Both the position numbers and the translations under genes were made by a program. Positions 5,667 through 60,338 of a stretch of 64,000 nt of DNA are shown piece by piece (within the stretch, counting starts at the first letter, position 1; every line of letters begins with the position of its first letter). Under the pieces are notes generated by a model. That model was not told the DNA's origin. It searched no databases and saw only the letters and a program-made list of their open reading frames with translations. Source of the DNA: a virus (lineage: Duplodnaviria > Caudoviricetes); the IMG/VR virus record IMGVR_UViG_3300037067_015007, positions 1 to 64,000 of that record; one strand, 5' to 3'.

Positions 5667-5674
5667 AATAAATA
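5667..5674 (+). promoter_or_regulatory. late-promoter-like AATAAATA motif
   Basis: T4 TATAAATA-like motif about 20 nt upstream of the ATG; recurs before structural genes. Confidence 0.5.
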
Positions 5675-10470: not shown

Positions 10471-10811
10471 CGAGCGAAGCGAGACCCGAACGAAGTGAGG
10501 CGGGAGGTAATCTTTATGCTCAAATAAAATTTGAGCAGACTTCTAACGTCCACCTTTTCTTTTTTTCATTTTTTAAGAACCGAAAAGTTTTGAATTTTTG
10601 AACCCAAATCCTAACACTTAAAAATTTTAATAACTTACAACTTTTGAGCAGAATACAATCATTAGGGTAAAATGAAAAATTTACTTACAACGTATTTCTA
10701 TGCGACACATCCACATAGCGGAGCTTTGGAACACCAACCTGACAGACCAACTGCTCCTTTAGCGAACTTGTAATTAGGAAAGTGGTTGCTCAGACCACTT
10801 GTTACCTAATT
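10471..10811. other. non-coding region with GCGAAGC-type motifs and hairpins (possible origin or ncRNA)
   Basis: CGAGCGAAGCGAG / CGAACGAAGTGAG at 10471-10500, hairpin 10517-10537, long stem-loop 10772-10811, no ORF. Confidence 0.4.
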
Positions 10812-11468
10812 TATTTGTTCATAATTCTGATGTATTTGTTTTTTTTTATTACTTATTTTTGTTTTCCATTCTTGTAATTTATTATTTGCTATTTTTCCCC
10901 CATATTTTTTAAACCAAATACTATAAAGTGATTTACCAAACATAGGATTATTTTTTCCTTTGTATTTATTTTTTATTATTATTGATATTTTTTCTTTAGT
11001 TTCTTTACTTAAATGAGTTCCAAACATATGATTTTTTTCACCAAGTTTGCCAAACATAGGATTTTTATTACTTTTAAGAGCCTTACTTAATTTTATTTTT
11101 GTTTCTTTTGTAAGAGGTTTTCCAAAATTATGATTATTTTCACCACTCATTTTTTGTTTTGATATTTCATTATGATGTTTATGTTTATGCCCACCCGTTT
11201 CAAGATTATATCCATTTGGGGCTAACGTATTAAATTCTTTTATTAGAAAACTTTCTGTCCAATCTAAATTTTCTTCGGGACAGGAAAATGAAATCCACTT
11301 GAAATTTTCTATATCATATTTTTTAATAGCATTATTGAATGCACAACAAAAAGTAGATTTTTTATGTTTTCTTATTCTTTCCCTTAATATTTGTGTAGTT
11401 TGTCCTATATACTGTTTTCCATTGACTAAATTGGTGGCTATATAAATTGTTCCGTTGTCTTGATTCAT
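10806..11468 (-). CDS. GIY-YIG homing endonuclease with NUMOD3 repeats
   Basis: GTIY..TN.VNGKQYIGQT, E..I, PNGYN, NPMFGK repeats. Confidence 0.9.
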   Translation of the reverse strand: MNQDNGTIYIATNLVNGKQYIGQTTQILRERIRKHKKSTFCCAFNNAIKKYDIENFKWISFSCPEENLDWTESFLIKEFNTLAPNGYNLETGGHKHKHHNEISKQKMSGENNHNFGKPLTKETKIKLSKALKSNKNPMFGKLGEKNHMFGTHLSKETKEKISIIIKNKYKGKNNPMFGKSLYSIWFKKYGGKIANNKLQEWKTKISNKKKQIHQNYEQIN

Positions 11469-11567
11469 CTTTAACCTCTTCTACAAGTTAGAATTTTAGT
11501 GAGATAATTCAAAGTGGTAGAAGCACTTTGAAAAGGTAGCGAACCCTGTCTCTCACTATTATTTATT
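11469..11567 (-). ncRNA. endonuclease-associated pseudoknotted leader RNA, copy 1
   Basis: P1 UAGUGAGA/UCUCACUA, P3 CAAAGUG/CACUUUG, loop CUUCUAC pairs with GUAGAAG at the SD. Confidence 0.8.
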
Positions 11568-15524: not shown

Positions 15525-15771
15525 ATGAAACCTCCTTTAATTTTTTTTCCATTTCCTTTTCTACAGTTTTCAGGATAACTGTCAGAATTTTCGGGCTTTT
15601 GATTTCTTCCATAGTAAAGTATCCTGTAAGCCCATCGATATGTTTAAATTTGACTGTGATATTACCATCCACTTTTATAAAGATAAAATTTTCAGTCTCC
15701 ATTTTTTGTATTGTTGGGTCTGCTACAAGTTGTCTTGCACATTGCTTGAATTCTTTTTTGGCAATTTTCAT
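15505..15771 (-). CDS. hypothetical protein
   Basis: 88-aa ORF with GGAG SD. Confidence 0.55.
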   Translation of the reverse strand: MKIAKKEFKQCARQLVADPTIQKMETENFIFIKVDGNITVKFKHIDGLTGYFTMEEIKSPKILTVILKTVEKEMEKKLKEVSYETEKN

Positions 15772-16427
15772 ATTTTATCCTCCAAAGTTATCTTTCTCTT
15801 TTTACATAATTGTTTGTATTTTTCTATGGCTTGTATCCAAATTTCAGGATGTTCTTGATGATGTTTTTTTAATCTTTCTCCTGAATTTTTATTTCTTTCT
15901 GCTAATTTTTTTCTTGCTTCAGGATGTTCATTCCACCATTTTTTTCTTTTTATACTCATTTCTTTTTTCATTTTTTCTGTCTTCATAGGATGTAATTCTC
16001 CATATTTTTTCAAGGAAGTTTGTTTCTTTTTTTCTTTTGTTTTTTCGGAAGGATGAGTTCCATATTGAGGATGATTTTCTCCTGAAAAATTTGCATGATT
16101 TTTTCTCATTTTCTTTTTTGTTATTTCCGTAATTATTTTGTTCTTATTCCCACCACCTTCAATATTATACCCGTTCGGAGCCAAAGTTTCTAACTCCTTT
16201 ATTAAGAAGGTTTCATGCCAATCCAAATCTTCTATAATACAGGAATAAGAAATCCATTTAAAATTTTTTTGTCCATATTTTTTAATTGCTCTATAAAGAA
16301 GAATACTGTCTCCTTTTCTATGATGTTCTTTTTGTCTTAAATCAAAATTTCTTATCGTTTGTCCCACATACATTTTTCCATTTAGTAGATTGATAACTAT
16401 ATAAATAGTTCCAACTTCTTGATTCAT
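15768..16427 (-). CDS. GIY-YIG homing endonuclease
   Basis: GTIY...N.LNGKMYVGQT, PNGYN, NUMOD3-like; start placed at MNQEV after GAGGAG SD. Confidence 0.9.
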   Translation of the reverse strand: MNQEVGTIYIVINLLNGKMYVGQTIRNFDLRQKEHHRKGDSILLYRAIKKYGQKNFKWISYSCIIEDLDWHETFLIKELETLAPNGYNIEGGGNKNKIITEITKKKMRKNHANFSGENHPQYGTHPSEKTKEKKKQTSLKKYGELHPMKTEKMKKEMSIKRKKWWNEHPEARKKLAERNKNSGERLKKHHQEHPEIWIQAIEKYKQLCKKRKITLEDKI

Positions 16428-16528
16428 CTTCAACTCCTCACATAAGTTAGATTTATTAGTGAAGTAATCCAAGATGATGTGAGCATCTTGGAAGGGTAGC
16501 GAACCTTGTCCTTCACTAATATTTATTA
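16428..16528 (-). ncRNA. endonuclease-associated pseudoknotted leader RNA, copy 2
   Basis: P1 UAGUGAAG/CUUCACUA, P3 CAAGAUG/CAUCUUG, loop CUCACAU pairs with AUGUGAG at the SD. Confidence 0.8.
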
Positions 16529-16530
16529 TT

Positions 16531-19500
16531 TCAATCAAAATTATCTTCTAAAAACATTTCTTGATATGCTTCAAGTAAGGTAAGTTTTCGTCCTTTATCA
16601 TGGGCCGTCCACAATTTTCGATAAACATTTTGTAATTCTGCTGCTTTTTCCGAAATAATATCTTTTACCTGAAATGGGTGCATGACTTGAATAGGAAAAT
16701 TTTTAAAAAGAAGTGCATAATAAGTTCCTACTATAACTTTTTTATATTTTTCAATAAGTTTTGGAAGTATTTCCATGAATACTATAGTATCGCCTATTCC
16801 CGCATCAATCTGAAATATTTTACCTTCTATGGGAATAGACCAACTTGCCAATTTACGTTTGAATATCTTATCATCGTTTGACCAAAAATCAGGATTGGCA
16901 TGGTCTCTGATGCCGCCCTGCGGATTGCGGAAGTGCCAAGTGATAGCATCTGTCGTTACGAATATTTTCCACCCCTTGCGTACATATTCATGACTGAATA
17001 ATGTTTCTTCACGGTGAGCTGCGGGAGACAATTCCAAGCAATATTTGATATCTTCAACTTTTCGGTATAAGAATGAAGAATACAAATGCTCAACAGGAAT
17101 GACTTTACCTTTTGGATGATAAAGCCATTGCATATTTTCTCTTGTGTCAATATCTGATAATTTATTCGTATTGAAATAATTCGGCGGGGCCATTTGCGAC
17201 AATTTAGGGTCAAGTACAAGACCCGCAACTGCACCAACCCCATCAGTCATCAAGTTGACTAAATCCTGCAATACATTAGGCTCAGCGTATTCATCATCAT
17301 CCAATCTCCAAATGAAATCCGTCTTGGCTCTATCCAAAACAATTTGATGATTGTGATGTTGTCCTTTTTTCGGCCCGAATAAAACTTCCCATTCAATGCC
17401 TTTTTTGGAAATCATGCTGAACAGGTATTGATACATCGGGTCATTGCGAAGGTCAATCATTTTCCCATCAGGGCCATTGTCAGAGTCGTCAACGATGATG
17501 ATTTTTTTGATAGGGTGAGTCTGCATCAAGACGGAAAGTATTGTCAAAGGAAGCGTAGAGTAATAACGATTTTTCGTGGCGATGTCAACGGTAACATCAA
17601 CTTTCCTATTTGATGTTTTTGATACTTCAGGAGTTAATCTTGTTTGTATAGGATTCCAATTTTTCATGGTGCGGTATTTTTCCATTGCCGCTTGCCTACG
17701 TCTATTGAAATCGTTTAGGTTCTTTTCCAAATAATCTTTATCTTCCACTCCCCAACTCGTTTTAGTCGGGTCAGTCCAGATTTTTACATCTTCCCATTTT
17801 CTAGCATGCAATGCTCTGATTCCCAATCCCGCTTCAGGTCGGGTATTCGACCAAATATGTCTGTCATTGTCAGGCAATGCAGAAACAACTATTTTTACAT
17901 CGGTGTATTTTTTCAAGGTGTATGCAAAATGTAAATCATCACCTTCTGTTTCTAAAAGTACGGGTTCACGGAAGAATGTAGAAAACCATTCCTTTCTTCC
18001 AAACCAACTATGACCGCCGACATCTACTTCAACGGCTTCTTCTGTTTTATCTCCGTTATCCCCATATCTTTTTGCAAGACCATCATTCAACTCATTTTCA
18101 TAATACATTCCATATGCAGAGACGACAGCATGTTCTCGTTTTGAAACTTTCAATGTTTCTTCCAAGTATCCTTCAGCGGGGAATACATCATCATCTAATA
18201 AAAGAACATAGTTAGTTTTTGCAAAAAGAGCCGCAGCAAATCGAGCAGGAAGTTTCAAGTCTTGTTCAGTTGATACGAGTGTAACTCCTTCGGGAATATC
18301 AAAATGAGTTTCGACCCACCCCTCTCCTTTTACGACTTCATTATCTGCATATTTCCATTCCCCTTCTTCCCAATGTTTCGACTTCGTAAGCCATACGATA
18401 ATTTCCTTTGGCTTCAATGTCTGCTTCTTGATGGCCTCTACCTGGTCCTTCAAAAGTTCAGGACGGTTGAATGCCGAAATCACAACGGTGATATCGTCAT
18501 CAATCGGTTTCATTCTGTCGTAACGAACCAATTTGACTTTATCTTCTAAATAATCCTGTTTGAAGGTTTCTTCGAACCCTAAAGCCATGAGATAATTGCA
18601 CAGTTTATCAGCAAGACCTTTCTTTCCTTCCCAACGGAAAATATCTTCATGAGTTTCCATGACAATAGTGTGAATTTTACCAAGTGTTTTCAGCGATGCG
18701 CCGTAGAATAAATCATACTCCGCACCTTCGCAATCAACTTTCAATAGAATAGGTTTACCGTCATCAATAGATGCAACAAGATGGTCTAATCCGATTGTTT
18801 CGGTTCCTGACAATGATGGACGTGAATACATTCTTCCATCAGTCGGGCTGAACTCAGGACGATTGACCATTTCAACCCATTCCCCATCTTTCTTCCCCAC
18901 GGCTTTATCAATAACAAGTATTGACCTTCCTGCTACATTTTGTTTTAAAATTTGCAAGGTCGGTGGTTGGGGTTCAACGGCGACAATTCGCTCAGCTCCA
19001 TATTCATCAGCCAATAAACTGAATATGCCAATGTTTGCCCCTACATCGATTACATTTTTTCCAATGAAATCTTTTTTGAAAACTCTGTATTGGTTGGTTT
19101 CAACTATTTCATAAAAAATGGAACTGTTCTGTGCTTGTAAATCCCTTCGGGCAATCAATGGATTGGATGTTGGCGCATCGTCTAAAATAAATGATGCTTT
19201 CTTTTTCAGTTGGCGAAATTCCTCATATGTCATTTGTGCATCTCTTGCATAATGAAATGCCCAATTATTTTTCTTATCTTCATCGCTAACCCTATCTGCC
19301 ATTCTTTTGTTTCTTTCTATGAACTCCGTGTATCCTGCAAACTTGAAATGAAGAAGATATAATGCTTCGCCTGATTTTACAACAGTTCCAATTGGGTTTG
19401 CTTGATGGCATCCCATAGCATAGCGGATGTCAACACATTTCGGATTGAATATCATCGATTTATTCAAATGTTCAGGGTCAGGGAATCCTTCACGAACACA

Positions 19501-21291
19501 ATCATACAATTGCATAATTTGATTATCAGGAAATGTATCGGAAATCATCTGAAATCCAACTACTGTTGGAACGGTGATTCTTGCGCTCCGAAATTCTTCC
19601 AATTTTCCTTTCAGGTTTTTATGCCATAAAAACTCATCCATATCGCAAACGATAACCCAATCGTAATCTTCCCGATATTCTTTCCATGCCTCGTTTCGAA
19701 TTCTCATCAGTTCAAGATTATTCATCTTGTCGTTTGGCACGGGAACGATTTCAACTTTATCACATGCCCGAAGCAGTTCCAAACTCTTATCAGTCGAACC
19801 GCCGTCATAAACAATAATCTTATCTGCGAAAGTCAAATAATGACGAAGGAAAAACGGAATCATTTTTTCTTCATTCCAACATACTGCTTGAACGAGAATG
19901 CTCATAGGTTGTCCGTGGCTTCCTAATACTTCATCTACAAATATCCAAGGTTTTTCTTCAAAACAAGCCTTGGCAAAATCGAAATCATGGGTAACGAGAC
20001 CTGAAGTAACAGGCCCGACTTTTGGCCCTGTTGTTTTATGCCGCCATTTTTCCGCATGCTTTTTTGCGATATCTGCACGAACCAAATAATTTAAAGAATC
20101 GATATGTGTCCATACGGGGAAATTTTGAAATCCAGGTTCAGGTAAATCTTTGTTTTCTTCCAAATGTCTGATTTTACCCCAAGCCCCGCCGACATTTTTC
20201 AAAAATGTTGCTTGCCAAAGTTTCAAAATCCAATCAGAATTTGCTAAATTGTCGCTGTCATGAAAACAAACCCATTCTTTTTCGGTGGAAGGTAGCGAAT
20301 TTAAGACTGATATTCTTGGCCCCCCGCCGTATGCCCCCTCATGTTCAACAAAGGTATATTCTATTTCAGGAGGATTTGGTTTATTTGACCTAATAGGCCA
20401 TTCTCTATTTTTCTTTTCAACCAACTCTTGTACCTTTTCATCATGTCCATCAGAAACAACATGAATTTTAACGTTGGTATAATATTGATTATATAAAGAC
20501 TCCAATGCCTTATCGAGTTTCGTATATCGTTTATAAACAGGGACAATGACATGAACCTTTTCCCAATATTTTTCAGCAAGCAGTAGTCTGTTTTTATAAG
20601 TCTGTGTATTCCATTCGTCCAAAGAAAATAATTTGCCCGAATGCATCGTATTTTCACCAACATGACTGAGAGGAAATGAACCAACTGATGTATGTGTTTT
20701 TCTATCCCATCCATTCACATAGGAATGAATATGATATCCTGCGTTGATTGCCCGAATGCAAAAGTCAGTATCGTCCGCATAGCCTAAGCCCCAAGCAGTA
20801 TCCAATACTCCTATTCTTTCGAACACTTCCCTCTTTATCATTACACACCAACCGAGCGGGAAGTCAACTCCCGTTATAGGGCAAGGTAATGATTTGGCAC
20901 CAACCAATCCCATCAATGGGTCATTCTCAAATGGAGTCTGAAGAATTTCTAACCATCCACGGTCATGAACGATTACATCGTCATTTAAAAAAACAACATA
21001 ATCGGGATTATCATTTGGCCCTAAAATATTTTTTAGACCTTCATTAATGGCCCCGACATATCCTAAAGGTTTGTCATACCAAAGGTAACTTACAATTAAC
21101 CCTTGTTCTGCTAAAGGATTTAAGAATGCATCAAATTTTGCTCTATCTTCCATGCCGTTCATAACAATCAAAATTTTACTATTTATTTTTGGATTGTTGT
21201 TGAGATTCAGGCTTTCAATACATGGTTTAAGAGCATTGTCGAAATTAATCCCTGCGGATGGAATAAGAATAGTTATTTTCTTATCGTTCAT
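16531..21291 (-). CDS. multi-domain glycosyltransferase/methyltransferase (1586 aa)
   Basis: several GT2-like domains (VFLNDDV, CFHDSD, VCDMDE, LLLDDD, WRLDDDE), FkbM domain (IDVGANIG...LKVDCEGAEY), C-terminal GT9-N-like GIGD motif. Confidence 0.85.
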   Translation of the reverse strand: MNDKKITILIPSAGINFDNALKPCIESLNLNNNPKINSKILIVMNGMEDRAKFDAFLNPLAEQGLIVSYLWYDKPLGYVGAINEGLKNILGPNDNPDYVVFLNDDVIVHDRGWLEILQTPFENDPLMGLVGAKSLPCPITGVDFPLGWCVMIKREVFERIGVLDTAWGLGYADDTDFCIRAINAGYHIHSYVNGWDRKTHTSVGSFPLSHVGENTMHSGKLFSLDEWNTQTYKNRLLLAEKYWEKVHVIVPVYKRYTKLDKALESLYNQYYTNVKIHVVSDGHDEKVQELVEKKNREWPIRSNKPNPPEIEYTFVEHEGAYGGGPRISVLNSLPSTEKEWVCFHDSDNLANSDWILKLWQATFLKNVGGAWGKIRHLEENKDLPEPGFQNFPVWTHIDSLNYLVRADIAKKHAEKWRHKTTGPKVGPVTSGLVTHDFDFAKACFEEKPWIFVDEVLGSHGQPMSILVQAVCWNEEKMIPFFLRHYLTFADKIIVYDGGSTDKSLELLRACDKVEIVPVPNDKMNNLELMRIRNEAWKEYREDYDWVIVCDMDEFLWHKNLKGKLEEFRSARITVPTVVGFQMISDTFPDNQIMQLYDCVREGFPDPEHLNKSMIFNPKCVDIRYAMGCHQANPIGTVVKSGEALYLLHFKFAGYTEFIERNKRMADRVSDEDKKNNWAFHYARDAQMTYEEFRQLKKKASFILDDAPTSNPLIARRDLQAQNSSIFYEIVETNQYRVFKKDFIGKNVIDVGANIGIFSLLADEYGAERIVAVEPQPPTLQILKQNVAGRSILVIDKAVGKKDGEWVEMVNRPEFSPTDGRMYSRPSLSGTETIGLDHLVASIDDGKPILLKVDCEGAEYDLFYGASLKTLGKIHTIVMETHEDIFRWEGKKGLADKLCNYLMALGFEETFKQDYLEDKVKLVRYDRMKPIDDDITVVISAFNRPELLKDQVEAIKKQTLKPKEIIVWLTKSKHWEEGEWKYADNEVVKGEGWVETHFDIPEGVTLVSTEQDLKLPARFAAALFAKTNYVLLLDDDVFPAEGYLEETLKVSKREHAVVSAYGMYYENELNDGLAKRYGDNGDKTEEAVEVDVGGHSWFGRKEWFSTFFREPVLLETEGDDLHFAYTLKKYTDVKIVVSALPDNDRHIWSNTRPEAGLGIRALHARKWEDVKIWTDPTKTSWGVEDKDYLEKNLNDFNRRRQAAMEKYRTMKNWNPIQTRLTPEVSKTSNRKVDVTVDIATKNRYYSTLPLTILSVLMQTHPIKKIIIVDDSDNGPDGKMIDLRNDPMYQYLFSMISKKGIEWEVLFGPKKGQHHNHQIVLDRAKTDFIWRLDDDEYAEPNVLQDLVNLMTDGVGAVAGLVLDPKLSQMAPPNYFNTNKLSDIDTRENMQWLYHPKGKVIPVEHLYSSFLYRKVEDIKYCLELSPAAHREETLFSHEYVRKGWKIFVTTDAITWHFRNPQGGIRDHANPDFWSNDDKIFKRKLASWSIPIEGKIFQIDAGIGDTIVFMEILPKLIEKYKKVIVGTYYALLFKNFPIQVMHPFQVKDIISEKAAELQNVYRKLWTAHDKGRKLTLLEAYQEMFLEDNFD

Positions 21292-21342: not shown

Positions 21343-21672
21343 CTATTTATGATATCTCTTATAACTGTTCTCTTTTATGATTTCTTTTGGTTTTGAAAAG
21401 GTCGTTGTTTCTGTTCCTTGATTTTTCTTGAAACAAGAGGTAATCTCAGAACAAAGTTCCCAATTTTTACAGATATGTTTTTTTGATTTGGTGCCATCCA
21501 ATCTTGATACATAAACCATGACAGGAAAAAAATCGGCTTTCGGGCAAGCGGCTCTCGCCTCTCTGTTCATGGAATGTTGGCATGTCAAACATACCCCTTC
21601 ATAATAAGAAACTTTTGCCACACCTTTTTCTTTTTCTTCTTTTATCAATTTTTTTTCGTTTATATGGAACAT
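21343..21672 (-). CDS. Cys-rich hypothetical protein
   Basis: CLTC...CP...C..W motifs. Confidence 0.55.
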   Translation of the reverse strand: MFHINEKKLIKEEKEKGVAKVSYYEGVCLTCQHSMNREARAACPKADFFPVMVYVSRLDGTKSKKHICKNWELCSEITSCFKKNQGTETTTFSKPKEIIKENSYKRYHK

Positions 21673-22552: not shown

Positions 22553-23218
22553 TCACCTACTGTTATTTAGTGTTTTATTACTTTTCATTAAATTTTCCCC
22601 CGCCCATAAAGGTTGAAGATTTGTGTAATGACATGCTTTTAGAAACTCTTTCCTGTTTTGAAGATTGAAAGAGTCTAAAGGTATAATGTGGTCAATATGC
22701 CATCCATAAAATCCGTAGTTATCCCAATTCATACCCTCTTTCCATTTAGATTCCAAATAAGTTTTGAATTCAGGAATAGAACATCCGAGGTCTTTAACTG
22801 CGGAGCCTGATTTTTGATTATTTTTTATTGCTAAACGAATTCTGCTTCTTAAATAATGAGCGAGTTTAAAATGAATATCAGTTTTTAGTTTATTATTAAT
22901 TTGTGTATATATTTTTTCTTTATTATTTTGATAATATTTCTTTTTTTCTATTTTTATTTTCTCTTTGTTGTTTTGCCGATATAATTTTTTTCTATTTTTT
23001 ATCTCTTTTTTATGATTTTCATAATATTTTGTTTCTTGTATAATTATCTCTTTTTTATGATTTTCATAATATTTTTTTTGACGTTCTTTTTGTCTTTTTA
23101 ATTTTTCTTCTTTAGATAATGTTATTCGGGGTAAAATTCCTTTTTTTCTACGATATTTTTCTCTTCTTTTCTTTATTGCTTCTTTTCTTTCTTCATCAGT
23201 AAAGTATTTTTTCTTCAC
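22553..23218 (-). CDS. HNH homing endonuclease
   Basis: WHIDHIIPL...CHYTNLQPLW..EN; KKYYENHK repeats in N-terminus; GTG start after GGAGG. Confidence 0.9.
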   Translation of the reverse strand: MKKKYFTDEERKEAIKKRREKYRRKKGILPRITLSKEEKLKRQKERQKKYYENHKKEIIIQETKYYENHKKEIKNRKKLYRQNNKEKIKIEKKKYYQNNKEKIYTQINNKLKTDIHFKLAHYLRSRIRLAIKNNQKSGSAVKDLGCSIPEFKTYLESKWKEGMNWDNYGFYGWHIDHIIPLDSFNLQNRKEFLKACHYTNLQPLWAGENLMKSNKTLNNSR

Positions 23219-23320
23219 TTTAACCTCCACCAAAGTTTAGTTAGTGTAGGTAATCCGAAAAGTGGTGGCTTTTCAGAAGGGTAGCAACTCCTTGTCCCTA
23301 CACTATTATTTAGTGTTTTA
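22563..23320 (-). mobile_element. leader RNA + HNH cassette bounded by a 15-bp direct repeat
   Basis: TAAAACACTAAATAA at 23306-23320 and 22563-22577. Confidence 0.55.
23219..23314 (-). ncRNA. endonuclease-associated pseudoknotted leader RNA, copy 3
   Basis: P1 UAGUGUAGG/CCUACACUA, P3 GAAAAG/CUUUUC, loop CCACCA pairs with UGGUGG at the SD. Confidence 0.8.
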
Positions 23321-26661: not shown

Positions 26662-26684
26662 TATTTATTATAAATCAATAAATA
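26662..26684. promoter_or_regulatory. back-to-back late-promoter-like AATAAATA motifs at the strand switch
   Basis: tatttatt 26662-26669 (minus) and aataaata 26677-26684 (plus). Confidence 0.55.
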
Positions 26685-26926: not shown

Positions 26927-27640
26927 ATGGGAACAATATATATAGCAACTAACTTGACAAATCAAAAGCAATATGTGGGTAGAACTGTACAAAATTTTAA
27001 AAATAGGAAAAATAGTCATATAAAATTGAGCAAAGAAGAAAATCCAAAATTCTTTTTTCATAAGGCTATTAAAAAATATGGAGTAGATTCTTTTAAATGG
27101 ATATGTATAGAATATCCCAAAAAAGAGTTGAATGAAATGGAGATGTTTTGGATAAAGACTTTGGGCACAAAGGCACCAAATGGTTACAATTTAACTGACG
27201 GTGGAGAAGGTACTTTCAACCCATCAAAAATAACAAGAATGAAAATGAGTGAAAAAAGAAAAGGTATGTATGAAGGAGAAAAAAATCCTTTTTTCGGTAA
27301 ACATCATTCTACTGAAGTTTGCCAATTTTTATCTGATATCAATAAAGGTGAAAATCATCCGCATTGGGGTAAAAAACATTCTGAAAAAACCAAGCAACTA
27401 CAATCTTTAAATATAAAAAATCATCCACAAAGAAAAGAGATAAATGAAAAAATAAGAAAAGCCAAGTTAAAAATGTTCAAATTCCTATCTCCTAAAGGAA
27501 AAGAAGTTATTTGGAAAAATGGTATCAATAAATTTTGTGAATATTATCAACTAAACTATCATAGTATTTGTGCTATTATGAGCAATCATTGGAAACGAAC
27601 CGAATATAAAGGTTGGAAGTTTTTAGGGATGGTAGAATAA
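26927..27640 (+). CDS. GIY-YIG homing endonuclease with NUMOD3 repeats
   Basis: GTIYIATN...YVGRT, PNGYNLTDGGEG, NPFFGKHH; no leader RNA upstream. Confidence 0.9.
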   Translation: MGTIYIATNLTNQKQYVGRTVQNFKNRKNSHIKLSKEENPKFFFHKAIKKYGVDSFKWICIEYPKKELNEMEMFWIKTLGTKAPNGYNLTDGGEGTFNPSKITRMKMSEKRKGMYEGEKNPFFGKHHSTEVCQFLSDINKGENHPHWGKKHSEKTKQLQSLNIKNHPQRKEINEKIRKAKLKMFKFLSPKGKEVIWKNGINKFCEYYQLNYHSICAIMSNHWKRTEYKGWKFLGMVE

Positions 27641-35342: not shown

Positions 35343-35441
35343 AATAAATAGTAGTGAAGGACAGGGCTGACGAGCCTTTTTGAGATGCCTTAATCATTTC
35401 AAATTACTTCATTTATATTTTGACCGATTAAGGAGGGCAAA
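35343..35441 (+). ncRNA. endonuclease-associated pseudoknotted leader RNA, copy 4
   Basis: P1 AGUGAAG/CUUCAUU, P2 GGCU-GACG-AGCC, P3 UUGAGAUG/CAUUUCAA, loop CCUUAAU pairs with AUUAAGG at the SD. Confidence 0.75.
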
Positions 35442-36011
35442 ATGAATTATAAACATCTTACTGAAGAAGAAAGAAAACAATCAAAACAAAGAAGAAATCA
35501 TAGATATTATGAAAATAATAAAAAAAAGATAATTATAGAAGTAAAAAAATATCGTAAAAAACATAAAGAAATTTTACAGAAGTACAGTAAAAATTATTAT
35601 CAAACTCATAAAAAGGAAATAAATACTAATCATAAAAATTATCGTGAAAATCATAGAAAAGAAATGTCCAAATATATTGTAAATAGATTAAAAACAGACA
35701 TAAATTTTAAACTTGCCCATAATTTACGAAATAGATTGAGAAAGGCTTTACATCGTAACCAAAAATCGGGTTCCGCAGTTGGAGATTTAGGTTGTTCTAT
35801 TTCTGCCCTCAAAACATATTTAGAATCCAAGTTTCAAGAGGGAATGGCTTGGGAGAATTGGAGTAAAACAGGTTGGCATATAGACCATATTATACCTTTG
35901 GATTCATTCAATCTTCAAAATAGGGAAGAATTTCTAAAGGCTTGTCATTACACAAATCTTCAACCACTTTGGGCTGAAGAGAATATTACTAAAGGAAACA
36001 ATTTATTATAA
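35442..36011 (+). CDS. HNH homing endonuclease
   Basis: WHIDHIIPLDSFNLQNREEFLKACHYTNLQPLWAEEN. Confidence 0.9.
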   Translation: MNYKHLTEEERKQSKQRRNHRYYENNKKKIIIEVKKYRKKHKEILQKYSKNYYQTHKKEINTNHKNYRENHRKEMSKYIVNRLKTDINFKLAHNLRNRLRKALHRNQKSGSAVGDLGCSISALKTYLESKFQEGMAWENWSKTGWHIDHIIPLDSFNLQNREEFLKACHYTNLQPLWAEENITKGNNLL

Positions 36012-40000: not shown

Positions 40001-40103
40001 AATAAATAATAGTGTAGGGACAAGGAGTAATTACCCATTCAGAATACCTCGTATATTCTGGATTACCTACACTATTTTAATAATTTTACGAGGGGGTTAT
40101 TGA
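40001..40103 (+). ncRNA. endonuclease-associated pseudoknotted leader RNA, copy 5
   Basis: P1 UAGUGUAGG/CCUACACUA, P3 CAGAAUA/UAUUCUG, loop CCUCGUA pairs with UACGAGG at the SD. Confidence 0.8.
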
Positions 40104-40685
40104 ATGTCAATACAAAAATATTTTACTAAAGAAGAAAGAAGAATTGCACACAATAAAACTAATGAAAAATATCGTAGAAGTAAAGAAATAGTAGCAAGAA
40201 AAAAATTCAATACGGAAAATGAAAGAATAGCAGCAGGAATAGAATATCAAAAACAATATTATCAAAACCACAAGAAAGAAAAATTAAAAAAAGAAAAAGA
40301 ATATCGTAAAAATCATAAAGAAGAAAGAAATTTATGGGCAAGAAAACATGATAATGAAAAATATGAAACGAATATTAAGTTTAAACTTGCTAAAATTTTA
40401 CGAAGTAGAATGCGTTTGGCAATTCACAATAATCAAAGAGCAGGTTCAGCAGTTCGAGACCTTGGATGTTCTATTCCTGAATTAAAAATATATTTAGAGA
40501 ATAAATTTCAAGAAGGAATGACTTGGGAAAATTGGAAACATAATGGTTGGCATATTGACCACGTTATTCCCTTGGATAACTTCAATCTTCAGAACAGGGA
40601 AGAGTTTCTAAAAGCATGTCATTACACTAATCTTCAACCTTTGTGGGCTGAAGAAAATTTAAGTAAACATAATAAGGTGATATAA
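40104..40685 (+). CDS. HNH homing endonuclease
   Basis: WHIDHVIPL...CHYTNLQPLWAEEN. Confidence 0.9.
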   Translation: MSIQKYFTKEERRIAHNKTNEKYRRSKEIVARKKFNTENERIAAGIEYQKQYYQNHKKEKLKKEKEYRKNHKEERNLWARKHDNEKYETNIKFKLAKILRSRMRLAIHNNQRAGSAVRDLGCSIPELKIYLENKFQEGMTWENWKHNGWHIDHVIPLDNFNLQNREEFLKACHYTNLQPLWAEENLSKHNKVI

Positions 40686-41954
40686 ATGCAAGGAATTGGG
40701 GATGCTCCAAAGATTACAATAAAAGGACATAAACAAGATATTAGTTTATCAAATTGGCACTTCGAAAATTTTCGTTATGTTGAAGATATCAACCTTGGAT
40801 TCCCAACGATTGAGTTCGCTTTGAGAGATAATACATACAAACTTTTACGAGAAGGATTATTCGGAGATGAAGAACTGATTGTCGAGGAATTCGTAAGAGA
40901 CCAATTTAAATTTGATAAAAAAAGTTTTACGATAAAGTCAATAGGGTCATTGGGTGAAGAACCAAAACCAATGGCAAGTCAAGTTGTCAAACTATTGGCA
41001 ATCGACAAAAATTATGATTCTATTTTAAAAAATCAAAAATCTGTTTATTTTCTTTCTAGCGAAAAGAAGAAAATTTCTGATTTATTGAAGAAACTTTTGA
41101 CACAAGTTGGTATTGTGGAAGCAGAAAATTTCAAACTAGTTATTGAAGAAACAGCACCTTTACTTGACCAAGGATTTCAAAATTTATTTATACCATACAG
41201 CAGAGACCCAATGAAGGTGATGAGAAAACTTTCCAATTACGCAATGACTCCTGATGGGACAGGAGCCTTTACGTTTTTCATCAATCGCAGAGGGTTAAAT
41301 TTCGTTCCTGTTAGTAAGTTATTTGTGGATATCGTTAAAGATAAAACGCCATATTTAAGAATTTCAGATATTCGTCAAACTTACGGAATCAGTAGTGCTA
41401 AACTTTCCACTTTCAATGCATTTTCGAATTTCATTACAGGTCATGAAAAGAAAATCATGGGGTTCAACCTGTACGAAAAGGAATACAACTCGATATGGTA
41501 TAAACCGAATGCAAAATACATCGAGCATTCAGAATATATAGATAAACCCGAAATCGTATCAAATGTCAAAACCATGCCATTACCCCAAGTTGCCAATAGT
41601 AATGCTATTCCTTTTTCGAAAGATTTCATTACAGGGAATATCAAAACATATTACACCCCTCTTGACAATCCAATGGCTCTGAAGGCATTTGGTGATAGAT
41701 TGTATTATTCACAAATGTTCAACTATGTATTAGAACTAAATGTGGACTTGATACAAACCATGCCCGATTTTGCTATTGGGGAAATGGTTGATGTAGAATT
41801 TTTTGTTACTGATAAAGATTCATGGTCAGCCTTGAATGGTGGTTGGCTTTTAAAAAGTTTCGCATATACATATCCTGGCGATAATGTAACTTTGAAGTTG
41901 ACAAGAATTGGGATTGGTACTCTTCCCGAACAGTACATAAAAGTGGGTGAATAA
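40686..41954 (+). CDS. baseplate hub protein (gp27/gpD-like)
   Basis: position between gp53 and gp5; Y.EDI, FAIGEMV..., G.WL.K.....Y......L.L.R. Confidence 0.6.
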   Translation: MQGIGDAPKITIKGHKQDISLSNWHFENFRYVEDINLGFPTIEFALRDNTYKLLREGLFGDEELIVEEFVRDQFKFDKKSFTIKSIGSLGEEPKPMASQVVKLLAIDKNYDSILKNQKSVYFLSSEKKKISDLLKKLLTQVGIVEAENFKLVIEETAPLLDQGFQNLFIPYSRDPMKVMRKLSNYAMTPDGTGAFTFFINRRGLNFVPVSKLFVDIVKDKTPYLRISDIRQTYGISSAKLSTFNAFSNFITGHEKKIMGFNLYEKEYNSIWYKPNAKYIEHSEYIDKPEIVSNVKTMPLPQVANSNAIPFSKDFITGNIKTYYTPLDNPMALKAFGDRLYYSQMFNYVLELNVDLIQTMPDFAIGEMVDVEFFVTDKDSWSALNGGWLLKSFAYTYPGDNVTLKLTRIGIGTLPEQYIKVGE

Positions 41955-50942: not shown

Positions 50943-51039
50943 AATAAATAATAGTGTAGGGACAAGGAGTAGCTACCCTTTCAAGATGCCTGTTCATCTT
51001 GGATTACCTACACTATTTTTGACCGAACAGGAGGGCAAA
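50943..51039 (+). ncRNA. endonuclease-associated pseudoknotted leader RNA, copy 6
   Basis: P1 UAGUGUAGG/CCUACACUA, P3 CAAGAUG/CAUCUUG, loop CCUGUU(C) pairs with GAACAGG at the SD. Confidence 0.8.
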
Positions 51040-51639
51040 ATGGAAGAAGTAAAAAATATTATTTACAAAGCAAAGAATGAAGAAAGAAAATGTTTTTATG
51101 TTGGAAAATCTGTTTATGGATTAACTGCAAGAAAACATCAGCATAAACATCGATGTTTTAAGACGAATTCAAATTATAAACTTTACAATTTTATCCGAAA
51201 ATACGGTTGGGATACTTTTACTTGGGAAATATTAGCAGTTTATTCCACACCTGAAGAACTACCACAAGCAGAGATAGATTGGTTAGTAGAACAAAAGAAA
51301 GAGTTTTCGGATTGGAAGTGTTTGAATTTGACAGATGGTGGAGATGGAAATTTAGGATGGAAACCTTCGGAAGAAATAAAAAGAAAAATTAGTGTTTCTA
51401 ATAAAGGAGAAAAAAATCATAATTTTGGGAAAACAATGACAAAAACACAAAAAGAAAAAATAGGTAAAAAATTAAAAGGCCGAATATTATCTAAAAAAAC
51501 AAGAGAAAAAATGTCAAATTCAAAAAAAGGTAAAAATAATCCTATGTTTGGAATCCATCGTTTTGGGGAAAATGCTCCTAATTTTGGTCGTTTGAGAACT
51601 GATGTATCCACTTTGGAGAGAATAAAAAATGCCTGTTAA
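51040..51639 (+). CDS. GIY-YIG homing endonuclease with NUMOD3 repeats
   Basis: IIYKA.N.....YVGKS, E..W, NLTDGGDG, NPMFG. Confidence 0.85.
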   Translation: MEEVKNIIYKAKNEERKCFYVGKSVYGLTARKHQHKHRCFKTNSNYKLYNFIRKYGWDTFTWEILAVYSTPEELPQAEIDWLVEQKKEFSDWKCLNLTDGGDGNLGWKPSEEIKRKISVSNKGEKNHNFGKTMTKTQKEKIGKKLKGRILSKKTREKMSNSKKGKNNPMFGIHRFGENAPNFGRLRTDVSTLERIKNAC

Positions 51640-54518: not shown

Positions 54519-55136
54519 ATGTGGGGATTTATTTACGCTTATACCATAAAAAATAAAAAATATATTGGTCAGGCTATTAATTTAAAAGATAGAATGAAAA
54601 AACATTTTAAAGAAACAGCAAATCCTTATTTCCATAATTCTTTACGAAAATATTTTAAACCTGGCGATTTTCGTATTTTGGAAGCACATTATGATACTCC
54701 TGAAAAACTTAAAATTTTATTAGATAATAGAGAAATTTTTTGGATTGATAAATTAAATACTTATGACCCTAAACAAAAAACAGGTTGGAATTTGACGAAA
54801 GGTGGTAATGGACAGTTAGGATGGGTGCCTAATGAAAAAACAAGAAAAAAAATGTCAGATATTAAAATAGGTAAACCCACATGGAGTAAGGGCCAAAAAT
54901 TTACCACAAAACACAAAGAAAATATTTCAAAAAATCATGCAAATGTTGCTAATGAAAATAATCCACGGGCGAAATCAGTTATATTAATCTCTCCAAATAA
55001 TGAAAAATATCAATTAGAATGTTATGCTCCTTTTTGTAAAAAAAATAAATTAAGTCCAGCGTCTATTTGTTTTGTTCTTCAGGGAAAACAAAAACATCAT
55101 AAAGGATGGACAGGGAATTATATAAATGCAAGGTAA
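54519..55136 (+). CDS. GIY-YIG homing endonuclease
   Basis: GFIYAY...KKYIGQA, RE..WI, GWNLTKGG; no leader RNA upstream. Confidence 0.85.
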   Translation: MWGFIYAYTIKNKKYIGQAINLKDRMKKHFKETANPYFHNSLRKYFKPGDFRILEAHYDTPEKLKILLDNREIFWIDKLNTYDPKQKTGWNLTKGGNGQLGWVPNEKTRKKMSDIKIGKPTWSKGQKFTTKHKENISKNHANVANENNPRAKSVILISPNNEKYQLECYAPFCKKNKLSPASICFVLQGKQKHHKGWTGNYINAR

Positions 55137-56812: not shown

Positions 56813-56910
56813 TAATAAATAGTAGTGTAGGGACAGGGAGTCATGACCCTTTCAAGATGTCCACTCATCCTGAATTACCTACACTATATTTTGACCAAGT
56901 GGAGGGGCAA
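56813..56910 (+). ncRNA. endonuclease-associated pseudoknotted leader RNA, copy 7
   Basis: P1 UAGUGUAGG/CCUACACUA, P3 CAAGAUG/CAUCCUG, loop UCCACU pairs with AGUGGA at the SD. Confidence 0.8.
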
Positions 56911-57456
56911 ATGGATAATCAAAACGGAACGATTTATATAGCCACCAATCTAATCAATAGAAAGCAATATGTGGGGCAAACTATTAGAACTTTGAAAGAA
57001 AGAATAAACTGTCATAAATCTTCTCTTTCTTATTGTTTTGGAAATGCTATCAAAAAATACGGAATTCAAAATTTTAAATGGGTTCCTATTGAATATCCTA
57101 TTGAAGAATTAGATAAAATGGAGTGTTTTTGGATTCAAACACTAAACACCATTAGGCCTAATGGATATAATTTACAATATGGTGGACAAAAATCTCATTC
57201 TTATTCAGAAGAATTAAAAAGAAAAATGAGAGAAAATCATACAGATTATTCAGGAAAAAATCACCCTCGTTTTGGTTTACATTGGGATGAAGAACACAAA
57301 CAAAATCAAAGTAAAAAATTAAAAGGTAGGTTTATAGGTGAAAAAAATCCTAATTTTGGCAATAAATGGACACAAGAACAAAAAGATGCATTGAGTAAGA
57401 AAAAGAAAGAAATGCATCAAAATAAGATACAAAGAATAAATAATATAGAGGAGTAA
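56911..57456 (+). CDS. GIY-YIG homing endonuclease with NUMOD3 repeats
   Basis: GTIYIATN.IN.KQYVGQT, PNGYN, NPNFG. Confidence 0.9.
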   Translation: MDNQNGTIYIATNLINRKQYVGQTIRTLKERINCHKSSLSYCFGNAIKKYGIQNFKWVPIEYPIEELDKMECFWIQTLNTIRPNGYNLQYGGQKSHSYSEELKRKMRENHTDYSGKNHPRFGLHWDEEHKQNQSKKLKGRFIGEKNPNFGNKWTQEQKDALSKKKKEMHQNKIQRINNIEE

Positions 57457-59795: not shown

Positions 59796-60338
59796 ATGAA
59801 AAAGAAATATTTTACAGAAGAAGAAAAAATAATTGCTAAAAAAGAATATCAAAAGAAGTATAAAAAAACGCATAAAGAAGAAAGAAAAAAATATGATAAA
59901 AAGTATTGTCAAAATCACAAAGAAAATATAGCCATAAAGAAGAAAGAATATTATGAAAACCATAAAGAAAAAACAAATATATATCAAAAAGAATATAGAA
60001 ATAATAGATTAAAAAAAGATATTAATTTTAGAATGATTTGCTATTTACGAAGTAGAATGTATTGGTCAATTAGAGGAAACTATAAATCAGGCTCCGCAGT
60101 CAGAGACCTCGGTTGTCCTATTTCTGAATTTAAGACCTATATAGAATCAAAGTTCCAAGACGGAATGACTTGGGAAAATTGGAGTAAAACGGGTTGGCAT
60201 ATAGACCATATTATACCTTTAGATTCTTTCAATCTTCAGAATAGGGAAGAATTTCTAAAAGCCTGTCATTATACAAATCTTCAACCTATGTGGGCTGAAG
60301 AGAATTTGAGAAAAGGGGGTAAAGTATGCCGAACATAA
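59796..60338 (+). CDS. HNH homing endonuclease
   Basis: WHIDHIIPLDSFNLQNREEFLKACHYTNLQPMWAEEN; no leader RNA upstream. Confidence 0.9.
   Translation: MKKKYFTEEEKIIAKKEYQKKYKKTHKEERKKYDKKYCQNHKENIAIKKKEYYENHKEKTNIYQKEYRNNRLKKDINFRMICYLRSRMYWSIRGNYKSGSAVRDLGCPISEFKTYIESKFQDGMTWENWSKTGWHIDHIIPLDSFNLQNREEFLKACHYTNLQPMWAEENLRKGGKVCRT

Follow-up and report, generated by a model that had tools for sequence, protein, structure and literature searches.

Sequence comparisons support the presence of a structured RNA leader, whose P3 loop would mask the 5' part of the Shine-Dalgarno (SD) sequence, in front of a homing endonuclease gene of an uncultured phage. This element, leader copy 2, lies on the minus strand at positions 16528 down to 16428 of the window (the whole stretch of DNA that was analyzed, i.e. 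the first 64 kb of an 89,320-nt IMG/VR virus record with a CheckV completeness of 39%), where it heads a GIY-YIG homing endonuclease gene. It is quite probably a member of a family of cis-acting 5' leaders which hold down the translation of free-standing homing endonucleases in a clade of jumbo phages belonging to the T4 superfamily; the tail sheath of the record shares 28-33% identity with its counterparts in Campylobacter, cyanobacterial and coliphage T4-likes. The element is an uncatalogued conserved RNA leader, while the kind of control, by ribosome-binding-site (RBS)-sequestering nuclease leaders, is already known. What is new is the partner of the P3 loop (L3), which proves to be the loop of a fourth hairpin (P4) and makes the contact a kissing-loop lock on the start-site hairpin.

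Eleven copies of the leader were found in the 89-kb record. A covariance model built from these copies recovered exactly the same eleven from the record, with E values of 1e-15 to 1e-22, the next-best match being at E = 0.07. Besides copy 2, the window carries copy 1 (11466..11566, minus strand) upstream of the GIY-YIG/NUMOD3 gene 10806-11468, copy 3 (23216..23313, minus strand) upstream of the HNH gene 22553-23218, copy 4 (35344..35444, plus strand) upstream of the HNH gene 35442-36011, copy 5 (40002..40106, plus strand) upstream of the HNH gene 40104-40685, copy 6 (50944..51042, plus strand) upstream of the GIY-YIG gene 51040-51639, and copy 7 (56815..56913, plus strand) upstream of the GIY-YIG gene 56911-57456. 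Six of the eleven downstream genes encode GIY-YIG/NUMOD3 and five HNH nucleases, and the leader subtypes (long or short P1, two types of P4) are mixed across both nuclease families of the record.

A pattern scan of IMG/VR followed by the covariance model yielded 51 further matches, 46 of them distinct, on approximately 35 contigs. One of these contigs is a complete 223-kb genome with terminal repeats and seven leader copies. A free-standing gene of the homing-endonuclease type follows every copy examined (GIY-YIG, HNH and, in the related contigs, also DUF7487 proteins). Two leader-plus-nuclease cassettes, HNH then GIY-YIG, are arranged in tandem at L006:603-2217 (genome positions 66996-68610), each with its own loop/SD address. 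On one related contig (L050:8853-8954) a leader retains P1-P3 and lacks the loop complement, the SD and the start of a downstream gene; it may be a solo relic. A scan of viral contigs with a promoter-free pattern gave no new copy by the covariance model among the 76 new loci listed, these being chance matches which are silent on the existence of leaders without TAAATA. The leader family is young and narrow.

The genes around copy 2 are, like the element itself, on the minus strand. The gene upstream (16531-21291) encodes a protein of 1586 amino acids in which Pfam identified five GT2 domains and an FkbM methyltransferase domain, plus a GT92-like stretch; it has a TAAATA motif of its own at 21350. 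The initial annotation had placed the cassette immediately after the stop codon of this giant glycosyltransferase/methyltransferase gene, and this is where it begins: the ORF list, the sequence and Pfam put the TGA at 16531..16533, and a TAAATA motif (16520..16525), similar to T4-type late promoters, is found five bases past it. The motif adjoins P1, lying one base upstream of its 5' strand (UAGUGAAG, 16511..16518), which pairs with the 3' strand (CUUCACUA, 16457..16464) according to RNAfold and covariation, the inner pairs covarying from GC to AU across copies. P1 of copy 2 comprises 8 bp, or 9 if a flanking U-A pair is added. It is followed by the junction bases GAC (J1/2, 16508-16510), by the small P2 hairpin (16492..16507; AAGG ... 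CCUU), whose loop is of the UUCG type, and by P3 (16469..16491), in which 16491-16484 pair with 16476-16469 around the 7-nt loop CUCACAU (L3, 16477-16483). The junction strand J3/1 (AUUA, 16465..16468) comes next. RNAfold returned the three-way junction for copy 2 at -28.1 kcal/mol (z = -2.9 versus shuffles). The full pairing of P1 and P3 claimed in the initial annotation was confirmed on the minus strand, P3 having 8 bp, one more than the seven listed there.

A linker separates the three-way junction from the sequence AUGUGAG (16437-16443), to which L3 is a perfect complement (7/7 nt), as had been noted before. Its last three bases are the first GAG of the SD GAGGAG (16434..16439), so that the loop partner does overlap the SD in the way first described. 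AUGUGAG forms the loop (L4) of hairpin P4 (16426..16452; 16452-16444 with 16436-16426), supported by RNAfold and by flank pairing across the copies. In copy 2 the second GAG of the SD, the spacer and the first two bases of the AUG all belong to the 3' strand of P4, and the SD is fully covered by the L3:L4 kiss and the P4 stem together. The pseudoknot originally proposed to mask the SD was correct in that L3 complements the 5' part of the SD, but its partner is a hairpin loop, which makes it a loop-loop kiss; the masking extends beyond the first GAG, the rest being buried in the stem.

The nuclease gene (15768..16427, minus strand, ATG at 16427-16425) encodes 219 amino acids with a Pfam GIY-YIG domain and matches the PHROG homing endonuclease family at E = 3e-21. 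Its stop codon is overlapped by the ATG of an 88-aa ORF without a family match (ATGA, 15768-15771, minus strand), after which comes a gene for a VWA-domain protein. Translation of the 88-aa ORF may depend on that of the nuclease gene.

The fold of the junction is borne out by covariation. Two alignments were used, one of the 11 local copies (A3), which was not fitted to the model, and one of 46 relatives (A4), which was fitted to the model and is somewhat favourable to it. In these, 97.8% (A3) and 96.8% (A4) of the cells in P1-P3 are paired, and pairs changed on both sides number 10 of 21 in A3 and 13 in A4. Column shuffles never reached the observed pairing, and sliding the partners by one to three columns lowered it to 42-61%. 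All eight pairs of P3 change on both sides with 99% of cells paired. The inner five pairs of P1 covary and almost never break, whereas its outer four show uncompensated breaks in 2-15% of the copies. Support for P2 is weaker because its changes are on one side only, despite 95% of its cells being paired.

The apex of P2 shows a further peculiarity. Among 25 distinct variants, 11 have a centred perfect palindrome of at least 6 nt (null 17%) and eight one of at least 8 nt (null 4.8%), for example at positions 40024-40037, 50966-50979 and 56837-56851 of the window. The palindromic apices have six different central tetramers, and the remaining variants carry a UUCG-type loop. Self-complementarity is not required of the loop in an ordinary hairpin, and the apex may therefore point to RNA dimerisation or to a protein site at the DNA level.

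The loop-loop contact is specific to each copy. In the 11 copies of the record, the loop matches its own tail over 6-7 nt, versus five at most for non-cognate pairs, and none of 100,000 permutations gave matching as good. Including the relatives, 49 copies were usable, with 41 distinct loops; in 48 of them L3 complements its own tail exactly, while full matches between non-cognate loops and tails occur in only 9 of 2324 combinations. The sequences flanking the partner of L3 pair with each other in 341 of 392 cells (87%) in the 49 copies, as compared to a permuted mean of 289 +/- 5 (74%), a value reached in none of 20,000 permutations; there are 33 variants of this stem, several of them clearly compensatory. 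Because these flanks covary as the stem P4, the contact is best described as a loop-loop kiss with a fully buried SD, and the sequence evidence favours this kissing-loop form over an H-type pseudoknot with a single-stranded partner. Across the copies, the rest of the SD and the spacer lie in the 3' strand of P4, which in some cases also takes in the AUG; the kiss and the P4 stem together cover the SD in 48 of 49 copies.

The same alignments indicate which strand is folded. A G.U pair on the folded strand corresponds to an A.C mismatch on the opposite one, and G.U outnumbers A.C by 108 to 9 in P1-P3 and by 68 to 12 in P4, from which it follows that the gene strand is the folded strand. Promoter-containing repeats flank some of the cassettes, which would be in keeping with the fold belonging to a small antisense RNA on the opposite strand or being a signal in the DNA itself, for example a site of recombination or homing. 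This interpretation was rejected on account of the G.U/A.C asymmetry and is considered extremely improbable; the loop partner also tracks the gene-strand SD in 48 of 49 copies, and reverse-strand matches to the covariance model score 17-21 bits as against 78-108.

It was also considered whether the leader might be coding, as a separate leader peptide or as a coupled N-terminal extension of the nuclease, in which case part of its conservation would reflect the protein. An ATG is present just upstream of TAAATA in about 40% of the copies; copies 2, 6 and 7 are open in frame with the nuclease, and copies 1 and 5 have a leader ORF which stops 0-2 nt before the ATG. The three frames, however, are open in 16, 0 and 5 of 45 copies, and since none is consistently open the leader is not a conserved peptide; furthermore, the changes are compensatory RNA pairs and not conservative codon changes. 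A coding role was discarded on these frame counts, and we give it hardly any credence.

The TAAATA motif is not confined to the leaders. It also precedes at least 15 leaderless genes, structural ones among them, at a distance of 20-30 nt, and a histogram of the distance between TAAATA and the start codon has two peaks, at approximately 25 nt and 97 nt. The motif was found 25 times in the sense orientation versus eight times for the reverse motif, and a purine occupies the sixth position after it in all leaders and in 15 of 15 promoters without a leader. Sequences of the form A/C-TAAATA with a purine at the sixth base are located 20-60 nt upstream of structural and other genes at window positions 5668, 28831, 34190, 36011, 43800, 50410 and 57436 on the plus strand, and at 26668, 22570, 21350, 14380, 13997 and 13521 on the minus strand. 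In this phage clade, A/C-TAAATA probably represents the late-promoter consensus.

The T4-like late promoter TATAAATA is positioned at -13 to -6 (PMC1524935). By analogy, transcription of copy 2 is predicted to start at G16514, the sixth base after TAAATA and the last G of UAGUG, which lies inside P1. An RNA initiated there would retain a P1 of 4-5 bp, having lost the outer four pairs, and the 9-bp P1 would be present only in read-through RNA. The covariation of the inner P1 pairs, together with the uncompensated breaks of the outer four, fits a start inside P1.

This arrangement recalls the T4 gene for I-TevI, and raises the question of whether the origin of the transcript acts as a gate, with only read-through RNA carrying the full 9-bp P1 being locked and the RNA from the leader's own promoter being looser and translated. 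The position of TAAATA one base before P1, a predicted start that strips off the outer four pairs, the tolerance of precisely these pairs for uncompensated breaks while the inner five almost never break, and the T4 precedent (PMC2988022) are all compatible with such a gate. It is nevertheless held to be unlikely. L3 and the 5' strand of P4 are 35-75 nt downstream of the predicted start, which means that the RNA from the leader's own promoter would keep the whole lock, and in many copies RNAfold continues to predict P3, P4 and a shortened P1. Moreover, the upstream genes have late promoters of the same type, so a gate of this kind would add no timing information.

The preferred explanation is a cis-acting translational brake which would work irrespective of the promoter used. 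The RNA would fold as a three-way junction (P1, P2, P3) followed by the start-site hairpin P4; L3 would pair base for base with L4, which bears the 5' part of the SD, and the P4 stem would close over the remaining SD, the spacer and sometimes the AUG. P3 is transcribed first and therefore probably captures the flank of the SD as it emerges from the polymerase. P4 alone is weak (-3 to -7 kcal/mol), and the L3:L4 duplex adds -5 to -9 kcal/mol; in combination they would let the 30S subunit rarely meet a free SD. By comparison, the start regions of ordinary late genes of the same genome are nearly unstructured (mean of -1.4 kcal/mol). The masking would be expected to lower 30S binding: a strong SD would stay locked and the nuclease would stay scarce. 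Since all inhibitory parts are downstream of the predicted late start, the choice of promoter could not unlock the leader. The repression may be constitutive.

Some observations count against a plain brake. Under a lock of -10 to -15 kcal/mol, a well-kept gene with a strong SD would be almost silent, which hints at a release step. The bases of J1/2 (GAC) and J3/1 (AUUA) are near-invariant in the alignments of local and related copies while the stems covary freely, and this could reflect a bound factor and not architecture alone. If the lock is released, the candidates include a protein, a metabolite, RNA processing, and ribosomes arriving from the upstream gene.

These features would suit a signal-responsive switch, in which a small molecule or a protein of phage or host origin, bound by the junction core, disrupts or strengthens the kiss and thereby makes nuclease translation conditional; the lock appears too strong for useful constitutive expression, and the P2 apex is self-complementary far above expectation. 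We regard such a switch as doubtful. The leader copies showed no conserved alternative pairing that could serve as an ON state, and Rfam gave no riboswitch match. In a young and narrow family invariance is weak evidence, part of it having been imposed by the search pattern, and the third position of AUUA varies in about seven copies. In addition, the nucleases come from unrelated families, making self-regulation by the nuclease unlikely. There is, in the same manner, only a slight chance that the leader is a new class of switch with a junction core, perhaps assisted by dimerisation through the P2 apex, that senses a phage or host factor and frees the copy-specific lock. Were this the case, dozens of selfish nucleases from unrelated families would be licensed together at one moment of the infection.

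The translational brake appears to travel with the gene that it controls. The complete relative G001 contains orthologues, 56-75% identical, of the genes which flank copies 5 and 7, and lacks both cassettes. At the copy-5 site the two flanking genes overlap in G001 (TAATG), while in the record approximately 694 bp, consisting of promoter, leader and HNH gene, are located exactly between stop and start. At the copy-7 site G001 has only the native promoter of the downstream gene, which in the record persists at the 3' end of the nuclease gene. From these empty sites it is concluded that the nuclease gene is acquired or lost together with its promoter and leader, as a single unit. Because the leader begins with a late-promoter motif, the three would form a self-contained cassette which can be inserted between tightly packed late genes. 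An empty site for copy 2 was not found, the downstream VWA protein having no relative in the viral contigs or in the four related records.

The gene downstream of the copy-5 cassette encodes 422 amino acids and looks essential. It starts directly after the nuclease stop (TAAATG, window 40683-40688) with its SD within the 3' end of the nuclease gene; in G001 (L179) it overlaps its upstream neighbour (TAATG).

Three nuclease genes of the window manage without a leader (near 26927, 54520 and 59797), and this was counted against the brake. They are located at 26927-27640, 54520-55136 and 59797-60338, all on the plus strand, have no promoter motif either, and encode two GIY-YIG and one HNH-like protein. 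All three start 1-3 nt past an upstream stop, and two have little or no SD. The gene at 54520 is absent from the same site in G001. Judged by their start regions, the leaderless nuclease genes look like a second route to low expression.

Searches against known RNAs and phages were negative. Rfam 15 gave no match at the gathering score in the whole window, and around the element, searched to E = 10, only chance-level matches (E of 1.7 or higher) were obtained. Hammerhead and other small ribozymes were also weighed; the hammerhead core is unlike the junction strands of the leader (GAC, U, AUUA), the Rfam models gave no match, and these candidates were rejected. No terminator, in the sense of a GC-rich stem followed by a run of U, was seen on reading the leader copies. 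Neither the 8 kb around the element (megablast) nor the leader (blastn, E up to 1) had a match among the GenBank phages of INPHARED, and the leader family, as seen here, is therefore known only from uncultured contigs. A full-text literature search found no publication describing the element. Nor is it mentioned in the text of a 2023 catalogue which covers more than 10,000 viral structured RNAs (PMC10690425); the motif may be listed there without a name.

SD-sequestering pseudoknot riboswitches (preQ1-II/III, SAM-II/V) and the loop-loop contacts of purine riboswitches share with the leader a compact junction fold and a tertiary loop contact which includes or governs the SD. The leader differs from these riboswitches in that it has no Rfam match and makes its contact with the loop of an external hairpin, the sequence of which is different in every copy.

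The closest known counterparts are found in the T-even phages, where RBS-sequestering structures with late promoters control I-TevI, I-TevII, I-TevIII, segB and mobE (PMC2988022; PMC3014915). To judge from this analogy, the brake matches the known control logic of the T4 nuclease genes (PMC2988022; PMC3014915). The RBS hairpins of I-TevI, I-TevII, I-TevIII, segB and Aeh1 mobE (PMC2988022) resemble the leader in several respects: the phage belongs to the T4 superfamily, a late promoter of the TATAAATA type is found immediately upstream, RNA structure hides a consensus SD, and the targets are GIY-YIG and HNH genes; both are thought to hold nuclease translation low or late. As in those genes, the SD and/or AUG lies hidden in a helix of the RNA (48 of 49 copies), and the regulated gene is a phage homing endonuclease (11 of 11 copies). 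Each of the T-even structures, however, is one local hairpin peculiar to its gene, and the late transcript lacks the inhibitory 5' half (PMC2988022). Here the late transcript would keep the inhibitory strand, the predicted start removing only the outer 4 bp of P1, and one conserved fold of about 95 nt (three-way junction, start-site hairpin and kiss) is common to unrelated nuclease families.

Two other systems are comparable. PeSL cassettes (PMC2839356, PMC4122927) are likewise short conserved modules of promoter plus stem-loop. They recur across the genome of a T4-like phage on the flanks of accessory genes, and they mark units which come and go, as the empty sites of G001 show for the leader. 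PeSLs are described as composite early-promoter/terminator motifs of hyperplastic regions. The leader, unlike these, has a late-type promoter motif common to structural genes, a fold which would lock the SD, a tie to homing endonuclease genes and no visible terminator, and so lacks the combination of early promoter and terminator-like stem-loop. The 5' UTR stem-loop of IS200 tnpA (PMC4513863) also hides the RBS of a mobile element in mRNA structure, keeping a potentially harmful enzyme scarce; it is described as a simple hairpin acting together with an antisense sRNA and, unlike the leader, is not part of a phage cassette.

For RNA biologists, the leader family is a natural covariation data set of unusual clarity, in which a ribosome-binding site is locked by a loop-loop contact. 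It is a candidate for a new cis-regulatory RNA family in Rfam, and could possibly serve in synthetic biology as a compact, tunable and orthogonal translational brake. For the annotation of uncultured T4-like genomes, the motif flags late promoters and mobile nuclease cassettes. To spread, homing endonucleases need sufficient expression, yet it must stay below the level that harms the phage, a balance which in T4 is achieved separately for each gene by ad hoc hairpins. The giant-phage clade described here would instead rely on a single well-folded, portable leader, shared by three or more unrelated nuclease families, each copy carrying a specific "address", one of 41 loop sequences, that fits its own SD flank.
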